A DNA stretch of 40,302 nt from the IMG/VR virus record IMGVR_UViG_2654588006_000003. One strand, given 5' to 3'. Position numbers and translations under genes: made by a program. Below the pieces are notes generated by a model. That model was not told the origin of the DNA. It searched no databases and worked only from the letters and a program-made list of their open reading frames with translations. Source of the DNA: a virus. Taxonomy: Duplodnaviria > Heunggongvirae > Uroviricota > Caudoviricetes. Of this stretch, positions 4,774 to 36,996 are shown piece by piece (within the stretch, counting starts at the first letter, position 1; every line of letters starts with the position of its first letter).

Positions 4774-4826
4774 GGGCGGCAGAGCAGTCACGGAGTAAAA
4801 CTGATACCGCCAAACGTCACCAGAAA
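4774..4826 (-). ncRNA. dicF: DicF small regulatory RNA (ftsZ-targeting antisense sRNA) with intrinsic terminator
   Basis: Minus-strand sequence UUUCUGGUGACGUUUGGCGGUAUCAGUUUUACUCCGUGACUGCUCUGCCGCCC followed by a U-run (plus 4769..4773); lies between ydfC and dicB. Confidence 0.9.
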
Positions 4827-8079: not shown

Positions 8080-8502
8080 GTGGCAAAAGTTTTTACACAA
8101 GAAGAGCGGGAAAAAATTAAATGGCAGGTGGTGGAACTCGTGCGCCAGAGCGGCCGTGAGACGTTACGGCAACTGGAAGCTAAAACAGGTGCGACTAGAT
8201 ATCTGATGAGCGTTCTTGCCAGAGAGCTGGTAGCCAGTGGCGATGTATACAACTCCGGCTACGGGTTATTCCCCTCTGAACAGGCGCGTAAGGACTGGCA
8301 AAACGCCCGCAAAAAACTCTCGAGGGCAAAGGTGAAGAAACCTGCTGTGGTTGATCCGGACCTTATCTGGTCATCACCTGACGGAGAAATACGTCGCTAC
8401 GACAGTCGCCTAAACATAATCTGTCGCGAGTGCCGGAAGAGCGAAGTTATGCAGCGCATACTGGCTTTCTATCAGGGTAATTTTCAGGACGTGGCGCAGT
8501 GA
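8080..8502 (+). CDS. Hypothetical protein (140 aa)
   Basis: GTG start preceded by AAGGGGGA; stop overlaps the GTG start of the downstream methyltransferase (GTGA); contains CRECRK motif. No family recognised. Confidence 0.5.
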   Translation: MAKVFTQEEREKIKWQVVELVRQSGRETLRQLEAKTGATRYLMSVLARELVASGDVYNSGYGLFPSEQARKDWQNARKKLSRAKVKKPAVVDPDLIWSSPDGEIRRYDSRLNIICRECRKSEVMQRILAFYQGNFQDVAQ

Positions 8503-8945
8503 GTGCACCGGCAACCATTCTTGATATGTGCTGTGGCAGCCGCATGTTCTGGTTCGATAAGTCTGACGAACGGGCGATATTCAGCGATATCAGAAAAGAA
8601 GGATACACATTACGCAATGGGAGACGCTTGATTATCAGCCCTGACATTATCGCAGATTTTCGTGCATTATCATTTGCAGACGCATCTTTTTCGATGGTTG
8701 TATTAGACCCTCCGCATCTTGAGAGTGTTGGTGATAACGCCTGGATGGGAAAGAAATATGGACGGCTGAATAAAGATGCCTGGCGTGATGATTCGCGACA
8801 GAGATTTAAAGAAGCCTTTCGGGTGTTGAGGCCGCACGGCGTTCTGATTTTTTAATGGAATGAAACGCAAATACCGGTAAGCCAGATTCTGGCACTGACA
8901 GACAGAAAACCTGTTATCTGTCAACGAACAGGGAAAAAACGATAA
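8499..8945 (+). pseudogene. DNA methyltransferase (amino-MTase motifs) interrupted by in-frame TAA at 8853..8855
   Basis: SAM-binding-like motif ILDMCCGS and catalytic-like VLDPPH in the 118-aa ORF 8499..8855; the same frame stays open for 29 more codons after the TAA (WNETQIPVSQILALTDRKPVICQRTGKKR) to 8945. Confidence 0.5.
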
Positions 8946-10007
8946 AACCCACTGGATTATTTTTATGAAAGAGGCATCCAGTGAGTAGATTCGTAAGGCT
9001 ACAGATACGTATATCTGAATAATTAAATTCAGTTCTGTAAATAAAATTTAATCCTTAACCGGATGGATTTCTGCACCCTCAGAACATCAGGAGGCCGCCC
9101 GAAAGGGCGGTAGTGAAATGCGAAAGTTCAAAATTATTATTGAAACGGGAATAGCTGGTGGAGATTTTGAGGATGTATTCGAAGTGGACGATGACGCAAC
9201 ACCTGAGGAAATTCATGACGGAGCATAAGAAATTTTCTTTAACTACTGCAATTACTCATACCACGAAATAAAAGACGATGAGGAAGAACAAAGTGGCTGA
9301 TTTTTGTTCAGCTAAATATAACATCAGTTTTGAAGAGCGGGATGAACTATTAATGGACTATGGTGAGTTACGCGGTGGAAGTGCTGCTGATGTCGAATCC
9401 TAGCGTGATGACTATGAAGCGGGAAAAACTCCGGTCGAAGCATATTGTGATGAGTGGGGCGATGAATGAGCGAGATTAATTATCAGGAAGGGCATGAAAC
9501 GGCGGGGCAAGCAAAACCAGTGGCATGGCGATATCGCTACGTGAAAAAAGGCGTTACGGACTTTCAGGGGAAGTAGTGGTCTGGTGACTGGAAATATGTA
9601 CCGAAAAAAGAGGATTGTAACGACAGGCCGAACTATCAAATTCAGGCCTTATTCACTGCCTCACCAGTCCCAGTTACATCAGAAGAACTGGTTAAAGCTG
9701 TGCACTTTTATGAACAACTAAAACGCGAAAATCCACCAACATCCGGCAACTAGATTAATGGATTAACTATGTCGGTTAAACGACCAGCCAACTGAAAAAG
9801 CGGAAACCTGATTACAGGTTGCCAGATAAGGCAATGAGCTACCTGGCGCGGAACGGACTGATAAGTATGGGGAATGTTTTACGATGAACCTTTAGACTAA
9901 AGAGTTTGTAACGCTATGTAAGTGATTTTTTCTGGTTTAGATATTTATATGTCCGGCCAAATTGAGGTGTGTTTAAATGTAATTGCACATTGATTGTAGG
10001 AGGAATA

Positions 10008-10187: not shown

Positions 10188-10521
10188 ATACAGCGAACTC
10201 CATTGGTTTAGTTGGATATTTACTGTGCTGGACAAAAACGGTTTGCGGGGAAATCTTAGTTAAGTAGAATGACTGCGGGTGCTTGAGGCTATCTGCCTCG
10301 GGCATGGACACCAACGGCAGATAGAGAAAAGCCCCAGTTAACATTACGCGTCCTGCAAGACGCTTAACATTAATCTGAGGCCAATTTCATGCTAGACACA
10401 TGTAGGTTAGCCTCTTACGTGCCGAAAGGCACGGAGAAGCAGGCTATTGTTAACACCAAGCTGTAATGTCCCCTTTGAACCATTCTAAAATGTCCCCAGA
10501 CAATTCTCTGGGGGATTTTTC

Positions 10522-11004
10522 ATGATCAAAGAGACTGTTACGATGAGTCATAAGGAACTCCACCGACTTCAGATTATTCAGGAACAAGCTGCGGCACGCA
10601 TTGGCATTTCTATTCGGCAGGTTAAACGTCTGGTGCAACGGTATAGAAATGAAGGGCCTTCTGGTCTGGTTTCCCACCGACGTGGAAAGCGTCCTAATAA
10701 TTCCTTTTCTACTGAATTCAGAGCAACAGTAATTTCACTCCTCAAAGGCCGTTACGCTGATTTTGGACCTACGTTTGCGTGCGAAAAATTGCGCGAGATA
10801 CACGGTTTATCTTTATCCGTTGAAACTCTCAGAAAGTGGATGATAGAAGAGGGGTTATGGCGTGAACGCCGTCGTAAAATTGCCCGTATATATCAACGCC
10901 GCATGCGACGACCATCTTACGGTGAACTGATCCAGATTGATGGCTCACCTCATGACTGGTTTGAAAATCGAGGCCCCCAGATGTACACTGATCGTTTTCA
11001 TTGA
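10522..11004 (+). CDS. Transposase N-terminal part (HTH domain), frame 1
   Basis: ORF track; HTH-like AARIGISIRQVKRLVQRY; ends shortly after IQIDGSPHDWFENRGP. Confidence 0.7.
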   Translation: MIKETVTMSHKELHRLQIIQEQAAARIGISIRQVKRLVQRYRNEGPSGLVSHRRGKRPNNSFSTEFRATVISLLKGRYADFGPTFACEKLREIHGLSLSVETLRKWMIEEGLWRERRRKIARIYQRRMRRPSYGELIQIDGSPHDWFENRGPQMYTDRFH

Positions 11005-11836
11005 TGATGCCACCAGTGCGTTGATGGCGTTGCGTTTTGTGCCTGCTGAAACAACCCGGGCTTACATGGAAACCCTCCGGGGTTACCTTAATGATCATGG
11101 CGTACCGCTCGCTCTCTACTCTGATAGACACAGTATATTCAGGGTAAATAACCCAGAGCGGGAAGGTGAGCTGACCCAGTTCACTCGTGCGATAAAGACA
11201 CTGGGCATCGAGCCAATCCATGCCAACAGCCCGCAGGCAAAAGGGCGGGTAGAGCGCGCCAATCAGACACTACAGGACAGGCTGGTCAAAGAAATGCGGC
11301 TTCAGAATATCAGTGATATTGAAACAGCAAATGCATGGTTGCCGACCTTTATTGAAGCCTATAACAACCGGTTCGCTACGTCGCCTCGTACTACTGATAA
11401 TGCTCATCTTGATGTGCACCATTCTGAAGAGGAACTGGGTTATATCTTCAGCCTACAGGCGAAGCGCGTTCTGTCTAAAAATCTCACTTTCCAGTACAAA
11501 AGCAGTGCGTTTCAGGTACGCAGTGAGGGCCGGGGATATCGACTTAGGCATTCGGTTGTTACTGTATGCGAGAACTTTGACGGTGAAATTAACGTTCTGT
11601 ATGACGGGAAAGCGCTGGGCTGGGAAAAGTATGTTGATGGCCCGGAGCCTATACCACTGGATGATGAAAAGAGTGTCCATGAACGAGTGGATAATGCCCG
11701 TATTGATTTACGCTCAAAATACTATGTTAAACCTAAAGCTGACCATCCCTGGCTTACGCGCCGAACGCAAAGTCATCAGCAAGTTAAGCCCCCGAAGTTA
11801 CCTAAAAAGAAGCCTGATCCCGATAAAAAAGATTGA
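10937..11836 (+). CDS. Transposase catalytic part (rve/DDE core and C-terminal domain), frame 2
   Basis: ORF track; motifs CTLIVFIDDATS, LYSDRHSIF and SPQAKGRVERANQTL typical of retroviral-integrase-like DDE transposases; continuity with the upstream ORF needs a 1-nt frame change in the C5 run at 10974..10978. Confidence 0.7.
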   Translation: MMAHLMTGLKIEAPRCTLIVFIDDATSALMALRFVPAETTRAYMETLRGYLNDHGVPLALYSDRHSIFRVNNPEREGELTQFTRAIKTLGIEPIHANSPQAKGRVERANQTLQDRLVKEMRLQNISDIETANAWLPTFIEAYNNRFATSPRTTDNAHLDVHHSEEELGYIFSLQAKRVLSKNLTFQYKSSAFQVRSEGRGYRLRHSVVTVCENFDGEINVLYDGKALGWEKYVDGPEPIPLDDEKSVHERVDNARIDLRSKYYVKPKADHPWLTRRTQSHQQVKPPKLPKKKPDPDKKD

Positions 11837-17155: not shown

Positions 17156-17455
17156 AAAAATTCCTTAATACTGATAACTTGGCGCACTATACACACGTTC
17201 CTGAAGAAAGCTATAGTTTTTTGATGGGGTTGAAGATGGCTGGATGTCTAAAATAAACATTGCTTCATATGTTCAACTATGCGTTAATGATTGCGTCGGT
17301 TTGAAGAACAGACGATATACGAAGTAGTTTACTAAAGCAGTTCTCATTTCAGGTGTTATTCACTTATTCCTTCTTTGAGTCTCTCCAATTAAGTACGAAG
17401 TCGTTTCTGTTATGCAAACCATTTATGCCGAAAGGCTCAAGTTAAGGAATGTAGA

Positions 17456-17671
17456 ATGTCAAATAAAATGACTGGTTTAGTAAAATGGTTTAACGCTGAT
17501 AAAGGTTTCGGCTTTATTTCTCCTGTTGATGGTAGTAAAGATGTGTTTGTGCATTTTTCTGCGATTCAGAATGATAATTATCGAACCTTATTTGAAGGTC
17601 AAAAGGTTACCTTCTCTATAGAGAGTGGTGCTAAAGGTCCTGCAGCAGCAAATGTCATCATTACTGATTAA
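17456..17671 (+). CDS. cspB: Cold-shock protein CspB (71 aa)
   Basis: ORF track; [21 protein letters not shown]... with RNP motifs; long AT-rich 5' leader. Confidence 0.9.
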
Positions 17672-17952
17672 AATTCATCGCTCGTCTGTATACGATAACG
17701 AAGAAGGCTGATGCCTGAGTAGAGATACGGACAGAGTAGTGAATATTGGATCTCTTTAATAAAAAGTAAGGAGGTCCAATACATGAAACAATGGCTAGCA
17801 TATTTGGCAAAATCTTAATCAGGAAAAGTATGCTAACCATTGTGGTGAAGTGCAGGTTTGCTGCATGAATAGTTTTACAGCAGAAGCTAACTGCTGGCAT
17901 GGCAAAACAAAGTGCGTAAGTGGATGACTCCCACAAAAAGCACCACAATCTC

Positions 17953-19980: not shown

Positions 19981-20342
19981 GGTAATATTAAATCGGAACA
20001 TTTACATCGCGGAATGTAAAATTTAAATAAAAAGGACTCTTCCATGAGCCAAAATTCCTGAAATCTTAAGGGTAAGATAAAAGGTCTTAATCAGAATGAC
20101 ACGTTTTATTAATAAATAAAGCTATTCTTTCATTGCTGTGTTTTTCTTTACAAAAGTAATCCTTGCTATGGGTGGTTAATCATGCGTTAATGGTGTTCTG
20201 GTTTGTTACAAATTTATCTGAAGCAGTCATTGTTATAATTTTATTATTTGTACCTCTTGAGATTTCCTTGTTGGTTTTTCTCTCTGATATTTTTTTTCGG
20301 ACCATTCTGCCCAAGGGCTAATTTCTTCAAAAGGTAATAATT

Positions 20343-20555
20343 ATGTCTAACAAAATGACTGGTTTAGTGAAATGGTTTAACCCTGAAAAAGGTTTTGGTT
20401 TCATCACGCCGAAAGATGGCAGCAAAGATGTGTTTGTCCATTTCTCAGCAATTCAGAGCAACGATTTCAAAACATTAACTGAGAATCAGGAAGTTGAATT
20501 TGGTATTGAGAACGGACCTAAAGGTCCTGCCGCTGTTCATGTAGTGGCGCTTTGA
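20343..20555 (+). CDS. cspI: Cold-shock protein CspI (70 aa)
   Basis: ORF track; CSD signature [23 protein letters not shown]... Confidence 0.9.
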
Positions 20556-20589
20556 GGTAGACAATATTACAAACCATATTCACTTTAGA

Positions 20590-28847: not shown

Positions 28848-31800
28848 ATGGGTAAAGGCAGCAGTAAGGGGCATACCCCGCGCGAAGCGAAGGACAACCT
28901 GAAGTCCACGCAGTTGCTGAGTGTGATCGATGCCATCAGCGAAGGGCCGGTTGAAGGTCCGGTGGATGGATTAAAAAGCGTGCTGCTGAACAGTACGCCG
29001 GTGCTGGACAGTGAGGGGAATACCAATATCTCCGGTGTCACGGTGGTGTTCCGGGCCGGTGAGCAGGAGCAGACTCCGCCGGAGGGATTTGAATCCTCCG
29101 GCTCCGAGACGGTGCTGGGTACGGAAGTGAAATACGACACGCCGATCACCCGCGCCATCACGTCGGCAAACATCGACCGACTGCGCTTTACCTTCGGTGT
29201 GCAGGCACTGGTGGAAACCACCTCAAAGGGGGACCGGAATCCGTCGGAAGTTCGCCTGCTGGTTCAGATACAGCGTAATGGTGGCTGGGTGACGGAAAAA
29301 GACATCACCATTAAGGGCAAAACCACCTCGCAGTATCTGGCCTCGGTGGTGGTGGATAACCTGCCGCCGCGCCCGTTTAATATCCGGATGCGCAGAATGA
29401 CGCCGGACAGCACCACAGACCAGCTGCAGAACAAAACGCTCTGGTCGTCATACACCGAAATCATCGATGTGAAACAGTGCTACCCGAACACGGTACTGGT
29501 CGGCGTACAGGTGGATTCGGAGCAGTTCGGCAGCCAGCAGGTGAGCCGTAATTATCATCTGCGCGGGCGTATTCTGCAGGTGCCGTCGAATTATAACCCG
29601 CAGACGCGGCAATACAGCGGTATCTGGGACGGAACGTTTAAACCGGCATACAGCAACAACATGGCCTGGTGTCTGTGGGATATGCTGACCCACCCGCGCT
29701 ACGGCATGGGGAAACGTCTTGGTGCGGCAGATGTGGATAAATGGGCGCTGTATGTCATCGGCCAGTACTGCGACCAGTCGGTGCCGGACGGCTTTGGCAG
29801 CACGGAGCCGCGCATCACCTGTAATGCCTGGCTGACCACACAGCGCAAGGCGTGGGATGTGCTCAGTGATTTCTGCTCGGCGATGCGCTGTATGCCGGTA
29901 TGGAACGGGCAGACGCTGACGTTCGTGCAGGACCGACCGTCGGATAAGGTGTGGACCTATAACCGCAGTAATGTGGTGATGCCGGATGATGGCGCGCCGT
30001 TCCGCTACAGCTTCAGCGCCCTGAAGGACCGCCATAATGCCGTTGAGGTGAACTGGATTGACCCGGATAACGGCTGGGAGACGGCGACAGAGCTTGTGGA
30101 GGACACGCAGGCCATTGCCCGTTACGGTCGTAATGTCACGAAGATGGATGCCTTTGGCTGTACCAGCCGGGGGCAGGCACACCGAGCCGGGCTGTGGCTG
30201 ATTAAAACGGAGCTGCTGGAAACGCAGACCGTGGATTTCAGCGTCGGCGCAGAAGGGCTTCGCCATGTACCGGGCGATGTTATTGAAATCTGTGATGATG
30301 ACTATGCCGGTATCAGCACCGGTGGTCGTGTGCTGGCGGTGAACAGCCTGACCCGGACGCTGACGCTTGACCGTGAAATCACGCTGCCATCCTCCGGTAC
30401 CACGCTGATAAGCCTGGTTGACGGAAGTGGCAATCCGGTCAGCGTGGAGGTTCAGTCCGTCACCGACGGCGTGAAGGTGAAAGTGAGCCGTGTTCCTGAC
30501 GGTGTTGCTGAATACAGCGTATGGGGGCTGAAGCTGCCGAGGCTGCGCCAGCGACTGTTCCGCTGCGTGAGTATCCGTGAGAACGACGACGGCACGTATG
30601 CCATCACCGCCGTGCAGCATGTGCCGGAAAAAGAGGTCATCGTGGATAACGGGGCGCACTTTGACGGCGAACAGAGTGGCACGGTGAATGGTGTCACGCC
30701 GCCAGCGGTGCAGCACCTGACCGCAGAAGTCACTGCAGACAGCGGGGAATACCAGGTGCTGGCCCGCTGGGACACGCCGAAGGTGGTGAAGGGCGTGAGC
30801 TTCCTGCTTCGCCTGACCGTGGCAGCGGATGACGGCAGTGAGCGGCTGGTCAGCACGGCCCGGACGACGGAAACCACTTACCGCTTCACACAACTGGCGC
30901 TGGGGAACTACAGGCTGACAGTCCGGGCGGTAAATGCGTGGGGGCAGCAGGGCGATCCGGCGTCGGTATCGTTCCGGATTGCCGCACCGGCAGCGCCGTC
31001 GCGGATTGAGCTGACGCCGGGCTATTTTCAGATAACCGCCACGCCGCATCTTGCGGTTTATGATCCGACGGTACAGTTTGAGTTCTGGTTCTCGGAAAAG
31101 CGGATTGCGGATATCAGGCAGGTTGAAACCACAGCACGCTATCTTGGCACGGCGCTGTACTGGATAGCCGCCAGTATCAATATCAGGCCGGGCCATAATT
31201 ATTATTTTTACGTTCGCAGTGTGAACACCGTTGGCAAATCGGCATTCGTGGAGGCTGTTGGTCAGCCGAGTGATGACGCATCCGGCTATCTGGATTTTTT
31301 CAAAGGCGAGATAGGGAAAACCCATCTGGCTCAGGAGCTGTGGACGCAGATTGATAACGGTCAGCTTGCGCCTGACCTGGCTGAAATCAGGACATCCATT
31401 ACGGATGTCAGCAATGAAATCACACAGACCGTCAATAAGAAACTGGAAGACCAGAGTGCAGCGATCCAGCAGATACAGAAGGTTCAGGTTGATACAAATA
31501 ATAATCTGAACAGCATGTGGGCTGTGAAGCTGCAGCAGATGCAGGACGGACGCCTTTATATTGCGGGTATCGGTGCCGGTATTGAGAACACCCCCGACGG
31601 CATGCAGAGTCAGGTGCTGCTGGCGGCAGACAGGATTGCGATGATTAATCCTGCAAATGGCAACACAAAACCGATGTTTGTTGGTCAGGGTGATCAGATA
31701 TTCATGAATGAAGTGTTCCTGAAATATCTGACGGCTCCCACCATTACCAGCGGCGGTAATCCTCCTGCATTTTCCCTGACACCGGACGGAAAGCTGACCG

Positions 31801-36421: not shown

Positions 36422-36996
36422 TGGCATTCAGAATGAGTGAACAACCACGGACCATAAAAATTTATAATCTGCTGGCCGGAACTAATGAATTTATTGGTGA
36501 AGGTGATGCATATATTCCGCCTCATACAGGTCTGCCAGCAAACAGTACCGATATTGCACCGCCAGATATTCCGGCTGGCTTCGTGGCTGTTTTCAACAGT
36601 GATGAGTCATCGTGGCATCTCGTTGAAGATCATCGGGGTAAAACGGTTTATGACGTGGCTTCCGGCAACGCGTTATTTATTTCTGAACTCGGTCCGTTAC
36701 CGGAAAATGTTACCTGGTTATCGCCGGAAGGGGAGTTTCAGAAGTGGAACGGCACAGCCTGGGTGAAGGATACGGAAGCAGAAAAACTGTTCCGGATCCG
36801 GGAGGCGGAAGAAACAAAAAACAACCTGATGCAGGTAGCCAGTGAGCATATTGCGCCGCTTCAGGATGCTGCAGATCTGGAAATTGCAACGGAGGAAGAA
36901 ATCTCGTTGCTGGAAGCATGGAAAAAGTATCGGGTATTGCTGAACCGTGTTGATACGTCAACTGCACAGGATATTGAATGGCCAGCACTGCCGTAG
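36421..36996 (+). CDS. tfaQ: Tail fibre assembly protein Tfa (191 aa)
   Basis: ORF track; start overlaps stf stop; sequence recognised as the TfaR/TfaQ family. Confidence 0.9.

Follow-up and report, generated by a model that had tools for sequence, protein, structure and literature searches.

In the 40,302 nucleotides of the viral record IMGVR_UViG_2654588006_000003 analysed here (hereafter the window), a methyltransferase-like reading frame runs into an ochre codon and then stays open for a further 29 codons, raising the question of whether a working gene was struck recently, whether the gene has long been dead, or whether its remnant is still put to use. The window is 99.7% identical to Escherichia coli ATCC 8739 across 12.9 kb and 99.9% identical to Escherichia phage PhiR42_1 (from ECOR13) across 8.9 kb. 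In the RefSeq annotation, the matching 40 kb of ATCC 8739 is a nearly complete lambdoid prophage, which we refer to as Qin-type because the marker genes int, xis, dicB, DicF, dicA, dicC, relBE and hokD are annotated in it. Its gene order begins with integrase, excisionase, exonuclease, ydfD, dicB, ydfC/B/A, dicA, dicC, a YdaT-like gene and an O-like replication gene, continues 3' of the latter with a DUF977 gene and the methyltransferase remnant, and ends with flxA, relBE, hokD, csp genes, lysis genes, and head and tail genes. The two genes studied very probably close the early-right (replication) operon of this Qin-type E. coli prophage. A promoter and terminator scan gave consensus-level matches only and left this picture unchanged, and our literature searches on DUF977/LygF/YdaW, on methyltransferase pseudogenes of Qin or ATCC 8739, and on PhiR42/ECOR13 found nothing specific.

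The layout given in a preliminary description of this DNA (a 140-aa ORF, a GTGA overlap, a DPPH motif, the ochre codon and the 29 open codons behind it) proved correct in every sequence statement. From the GTG at 8499, which has a Shine-Dalgarno-like AGGA 9 nt on its 5' side, the methyltransferase frame comprises 118 codons, TAA at 8853..8855, 29 sense codons and TAA at 8943..8945, and the 118-codon part translates as MSAPATILDMCCGS...LDPPH...GVLIF. After repair of the frame, the protein gave a significant full-length profile match to PHROG 954 (E 6.7e-80, residues 5-161), and both DxCCGS (motif I) and DPPH (motif IV) of this family are present in the window copy. Since the repaired frame matches PHROG 954 and the codons after the stop match an intact orthologue, the frame is not a product of chance. 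PHROG 954 spans phages of Proteobacteria, Firmicutes and Actinobacteria with more than 2,000 clusters at 50% identity, and identities of 55-60% are retained among its members from E. coli, Acinetobacter, Gordonia and Staphylococcus phages. A phmmer search returned 6,694 homologues, most of them 155-170 aa long and some reaching about 248 aa, and an exhaustive search returned 2,030 clusters at 50% identity, where most full-length matches among those listed align up to query position ~157-160. Many enterobacterial members (P0009, P0015, P0017 and others) are about 248 aa long; P0009, the one sequence read, has about 90 aa appended C-terminally to the 160-aa core. The features of the locus and its surroundings are collected in Table 1.

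Table 1. Coordinates of the methyltransferase locus, of related copies and of neighbouring features (positions in the window unless another sequence is named).
Feature	Position	Strand	Basis or remark
DicF sRNA	4774..4825	-	Rfam; as expected for Qin
DUF977 (YdaW/LygF-type) gene, intact, 140 aa, GTG start	8080..8502	+	Pfam, PHROG, RefSeq
Predicted methyltransferase pseudogene, full ancestral extent, 162 codons, GTG 8499 to ancestral TAG 8986..8988	8499..8988	+	DNA alignments with intact orthologues
Truncated, still translatable ORF, 118 codons	8499..8855	+	RefSeq 'class I SAM-dependent methyltransferase' WP_001310834.1
Motif I-like SAM-binding segment ILDMCCGS, residues 7-14	8517..8540	+	D9, C11, C12 and G13 invariant in 113 members
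DPPH, motif IV, amino-methyltransferase type, residues 70-73	8706..8717	+	Invariant in alignments A2 and A4
Lesion 1, TAA for AAA (Lys119), A-to-T at 8853, context TAAT	8853..8855	+	Intact orthologues all AAA
Lesion 2, one extra G, +1 insertion, frame shifted	8931..8933	+	Gap column in alignment with orthologues
Out-of-frame TAA ending the 29-codon stretch	8943..8945	+	Consequence of lesion 2, not the natural gene end
DUF7167 gene, internal stop	~9118..9300		36-codon first piece, 9118..9228, in window ORF list
Hypothetical gene, frameshifted	~9466..9887		ATCC 8739 annotation
sok antitoxin RNA (RF01794), full-length, in unannotated gap 5' of ISNCY fragment	10277..10448	+	Rfam, 104 bits against gathering score 59
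ISNCY transposase, truncated	~10543..11565		ATCC 8739 annotation
cspA-type thermoregulator leaders, two, 5' of cspB and cspI	17295..17687, 20197..20582	+	Rfam; expected for Qin
Phage tail protein gene	~30451..31027	+	Annotated 'frameshifted' in ATCC 8739 at matching position
IS009 (RF02111), full length, in tail-gene block near minor tail L / C40 peptidase genes	36764..36962	+	Rfam, 221 bits
O157:H7-type methyltransferase copies, W95 TAG and late TAG at codon 158	L003 3003..3476, L007 2503..2976		
Methyltransferase of E. coli B (ATCC 11303) / phage HannyBb, cut after ~62 codons, followed by QueH-like gene	L004 2920..3105, L005 2947..3153		

Alignment with intact orthologues, namely the copy of an Stx2c phage, that of a Klebsiella phage, and protein P0001 encoded on sequences L011 and L012, revealed two disabling lesions. 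At the position of the first, all intact relatives carry Lys (AAA) and continue to about 160 aa, showing that homologues do not naturally end there, and the stretch behind the stop (WNETQIPVSQILALTDRKPVICQRTGKKR) is conserved, with 24 of its 29 codons identical to the nearest intact orthologue, P0001. The second lesion, overlooked in the preliminary description, lies 78 nt 3' of the first, where the window reads ACAGGGAAAAAAC and O157-type copies read ACAGGAAAAAAC (GGG against GG), the relatives having one base fewer. Beyond it, translation in the +1 frame gives GKNDKTHWIIFMKEASSE up to TAG 8986..8988, which is the conserved family C-terminus; the ancestral C-terminus NDKTHWIIFMKEASSE is found in this +1 frame, into which the last 16 codons have been displaced. 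The TAA at 8943 stands in frame because of the inserted G. The 147-aa concatenation proposed earlier does not represent the ancestral product, which had 162 aa, and finishes in two out-of-frame residues and an out-of-frame stop. The uninterrupted ORF of about 155-165 codons with a conserved C-terminal third (KW...P...KTHW) is absent in the window copy.

The damage extends into the remaining coding sequence. Four missense changes (C39R, D40N, F69L and G102R) fall at the 37 positions that are invariant in alignment A4, whose members (n=113) are the best-scoring profile matches, somewhat inflating the number of columns counted as invariant; together with K119stop, 5 of the 37 are affected. When the 113 members were themselves subjected to a leave-one-out test on invariant columns, 106 broke none and 7 broke one. 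K119, W120, P138 and W152, from the stop position onwards, are invariant in these 113 diverse members. The intact E. coli member P0001 (162 aa) is the nearest intact protein among 5.8 billion sequences, and it shares with the window copy 88% identity after repair, its length, the DxCCGS and DPPH motifs, and a place directly 3' of DUF977 with an identical 4-bp overlap, whereas the window copy departs from the intact members by the TAA at codon 119, the +1 G at codon ~145 and the four replaced invariant residues. On the strength of these alignments the gene is to be regarded as a pseudogene of PHROG 954 and not as a functional member, which bears out the earlier suggestion that an in-frame ochre codon has put a gene of a methyltransferase family out of action.

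The preliminary description had also offered a recent nonsense mutation, which would be strain-specific and would have hit an otherwise functional gene. The TAA is indeed one base from the ancestral AAA, and the 24 matching codons downstream are what such a mutation would leave, but the distribution of the allele speaks against it. Complete E. coli genomes with the allele number 484, and 472 of them, from many hosts and countries, contain the exact TAA-bearing 61-mer, whereas the AAA-restored 61-mer had no exact full-length match in 5,426 genomes, the best full-length matches being TAA copies at 60/61 bases. Since, moreover, the TAA is accompanied by a second disabling lesion and four changes at invariant residues, and the closest intact protein shares no more than 88% identity, a recent mutation is extremely unlikely. 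A sequencing or assembly error that mimics stop and frameshift in a truly intact gene could be suspected from the position of the frameshift beside the homopolymer GGGAAAAAA, a classic site of such errors. Both lesions were nevertheless seen in the independent complete assemblies of ATCC 8739, F95 and JKHS016 and in phage PhiR42_1, with hundreds more by exact 61-mer, and the TAA is a substitution and not a change in homopolymer length, so that an error is next to impossible. Counting the window, both lesions occur in five of the five Qin-type sequences examined; the universality of the second rests on these five and on 375 exact 61-mer matches, with a frameshift probe that by itself cannot separate all Qin-type from O157-type copies.

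Two further explanations would grant the interrupted gene a function. Programmed recoding, with readthrough of the TAA followed by a +1 slip on the A-run at 8934..8939, would yield low levels of a full-length enzyme (...TGKNDKTHW), and a +1 shift of tRNA-Lys on AAAAAA would in fact regenerate the exact ancestral reading. Against this, the intact orthologues have neither stop nor shift signal (AAA, no extra G), meaning that recoding is not conserved; the stop stands in the context TAAT, and in E. coli no terminator context is more efficient than UAA with a U behind it. Recoding would also take two independent events, each of low efficiency, and their product would still bear four substitutions at invariant sites, making this explanation exceedingly improbable. 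Alternatively, the 118-aa N-terminal fragment may have been kept for a new role (e.g., SAM binding) or as a translated spacer aiding DUF977 expression, given that its ORF, start and AGGA are preserved in about 470 genomes and that PGAP calls a CDS. Common ancestry of copies that have hardly diverged (99-100% identity) accounts for this preservation, all four replaced residues fall inside the 118-aa part, and the fragment would, according to the structural model described below, lack two core strands of the sheet. Nor is any particular fragment conserved, as about 62 codons remain in E. coli B/HannyBb and the stop is at W95 in O157:H7. Retention of the fragment is therefore very unlikely, if slightly less so than the preceding explanations.

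We conclude that the methyltransferase gene is very probably a fixed, vertically inherited pseudogene whose lesions, as judged from their distribution among genomes, are old. The corresponding locus of E. coli F95 (R8904_RS11605) has the same allele with both lesions in the same Qin-type context and differs from the window at six single positions over 490 bp; the two non-synonymous differences (R76 and L98 in F95, S76 and S98 in the window) are both departures of the window from the family consensus, which F95 retains. RefSeq marks the F95 copy as 'SAM-dependent methyltransferase; frameshifted; internal stop', and the locus is in this sense already recognised as a pseudogene in public annotation, while in ATCC 8739 and most other genomes PGAP calls the 118-codon remnant as a CDS (WP_001310834.1). 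One metagenome scaffold (L013, 398..799) has GAA (Glu) at the stop position, yet the same +1 G insertion. This GAA would represent an intermediate or else a change that the pseudogene acquired secondarily, and because it occurs together with the extra G, either of the two lesions may have come first. The allele was also found in NZ_CP026085.1, a 4.83-Mb genome labelled 'E. coli DH5alpha'; this is considerably larger than a K-12 derivative, and the strain label looks doubtful.

In this pseudogene the Lys119 codon AAA has become TAA, the single G inserted 78 nt downstream shifts the frame, and four family-invariant residues have been replaced, leaving a remnant from which at most a 118-aa fragment can be translated; relaxed selection in the defective prophage would be the underlying cause. 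A shallow alignment (38 sequences, at least 71% identity) initially gave a model with a pLDDT of 57, which was discarded. With an alignment built from a diverse profile, the AlphaFold (AF2) model of the intact orthologue reached a pLDDT of 91, and in it a helix (127-131) and two strands (140-144 and 150-156) fall after the stop. In the 118-aa fragment, the Rossmann sheet would thus miss its final two strands and the conserved C-terminal third would be absent, and since part of the Rossmann core is missing, methyltransferase activity is not expected. The fragment itself may persist stably, since PGAP calls it as a CDS in most genomes.

The gene has been lost elsewhere as well. O157:H7 copies, located in another prophage, carry TAG in place of W95, an independent inactivation, and the truncation in E. 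coli B/HannyBb is a third independent route of gene loss. The copy in the Stx2c phage (L009) is intact.

The upstream gene, described earlier as encoding an unknown protein, could be assigned to a family. Its 140-aa product matched Pfam PF06163 (DUF977) over the complete profile (positions 1-134 of 134) with 101.5 bits against a cut-off of 22.1, and PHROG 142, labelled 'Ren-like exclusion protein', with an E of 1.6e-47; phage records name the DUF977 protein LygF, and the protein at the matching position in ATCC 8739 is WP_001151262.1. The Rac prophage gene ydaW belongs to the DUF977 family. Like its YdaW and LygF relatives, the window gene encodes a full-length PF06163 protein and lies 3' of an O-like replication gene in a lambdoid prophage, with no notable difference from them. 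An NCBIfam search gave no specific model for either the DUF977 protein or the methyltransferase. The sequence AAGGGGGA precedes the GTG start of the DUF977 gene, which ends at TGA 8500..8502, its stop and the methyltransferase start (GTG at 8499) being interlocked as GTGA; the start/stop overlap from which translational coupling had been proposed is present as described.

This overlap could suggest that the two genes form a functional pair, and L011 and L012, where DUF977 adjoins an intact methyltransferase, show it too. However, the upstream neighbour differs from phage to phage, and we rejected such a pair. The same 4-bp overlap recurs with the unrelated upstream genes PHROG 614 in O157 prophages, PHROG 492 in a Klebsiella phage, and PHROG 5217 or 16477 in Acinetobacter, which leaves the methyltransferase without a conserved partner; in Staphylococcus the upstream gene is a dUTPase and is separated by a gap. 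The overlap with DUF977 is, as gene order indicates, ordinary operon packing and not the mark of a two-protein enzyme. Among 5,426 complete E. coli genomes, 4,062 match part of a 921-base query, the partial ones among the matches listed covering mostly DUF977, and in only 485 does the match extend over 80% or more of the query, placing the methyltransferase next to DUF977.

As to what the parent family modifies, PHROG 954 carries the label 'DNA methyltransferase' as an annotation, and the window gene had likewise been described as a DNA methyltransferase. The repaired protein remained below threshold for Methyltransf_11 (20.5, cut-off 21.2) and for N6_N4_Mtase (PF01555; 13.7 bits, cut-off 26.7), and 6 of 34 family members gave a weak N6_N4_Mtase match (best E 0.0012). 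A fold search returned generic class I and RNA amino-methyltransferases, none of the 60 matches listed being described as a DNA methyltransferase, and hundreds of class I enzymes could not be told apart by their scores. Sequence searches of the PDB with the single protein and with a profile gave generic or marginal matches only (best E 1e-4, to PH0226), and a limited literature search on the family found no methylome or enzymology for any PHROG 954 member. The earlier designation can therefore be kept as far as membership of a methyltransferase family (PHROG 954) is concerned, while the attribution to DNA is at most putative in view of the sub-threshold N6_N4_Mtase scores and the generic or RNA-related fold matches. 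DPPH is a (D/N/S)PP(Y/F/W/H) motif, presumably directing N-methylation of an exocyclic amino group. From motifs and length, PHROG 954 is predicted to be a family of small class I SAM methyltransferases, in which a length of about 160 aa would leave no space for a separate target-recognition domain. It shares only 13-24% identity with the RNA amino-methyltransferases Trm11, TrmN, RsmC and Trm14 and with generic class I enzymes such as PH0226, and has no THUMP or other RNA-binding domain.

A possible parallel is the Stx-prophage system M.EcoPA8orf6770P-PNB-2, a two-subunit MT-A70 methyltransferase with a DPPW motif that, together with the winged-helix protein PNB-2, acts on 16S rRNA (PMC10810198). 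Both systems combine a small prophage methyltransferase without its own specificity domain with a predicted winged-helix protein upstream, and the Stx-prophage pair is co-transcribed (PMC10810198), but the window copy is of the class I/DPPH type with a variable upstream neighbour, and the resemblance is an analogy only. The window methyltransferase gave no MT-A70 match in Pfam and has DPPH instead of DPPW; the Stx-phage rRNA methyltransferase, belonging to the MT-A70 family, was rejected as a lead. By extension of the analogy, PHROG 954 might, instead of DNA methyltransferases, comprise minimal RNA or non-specific nucleic-acid amino-methyltransferases that carry no recognition domain and might, in enterobacterial lambdoids, borrow their specificity from the overlapped DUF977 winged-helix protein, in which case the window would hold the fossil of such a pair; we consider this a long shot.

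The biological weight of the case is small, as it is an ordinary decayed gene in a defective prophage already known to decay. Its practical consequence lies in annotation, where RefSeq is inconsistent, with the dead allele listed in most genomes as WP_001310834.1, a 118-aa 'class I SAM-dependent methyltransferase', but elsewhere as a pseudogene, and surveys of methylomes or defence systems that count the remnant as a methyltransferase will overcount. The parent family is very widespread and strikingly conserved, and an intact member, not the window copy, would be worth studying, above all for its substrate.

Decay also marks the immediate downstream neighbours (Table 1), since in the RefSeq record of ATCC 8739, 99.7% identical to the window, a DUF7167 gene, a hypothetical gene and an ISNCY transposase are annotated there as defective; much further on, in that record, a phage tail protein gene is affected as well. 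The IS009 match of Rfam falls among the tail genes. The sok antitoxin RNA upstream of the ISNCY fragment lies about 3.3 kb from the annotated hokD, and may represent a second, unannotated locus of the hok/sok type or a remnant of one.
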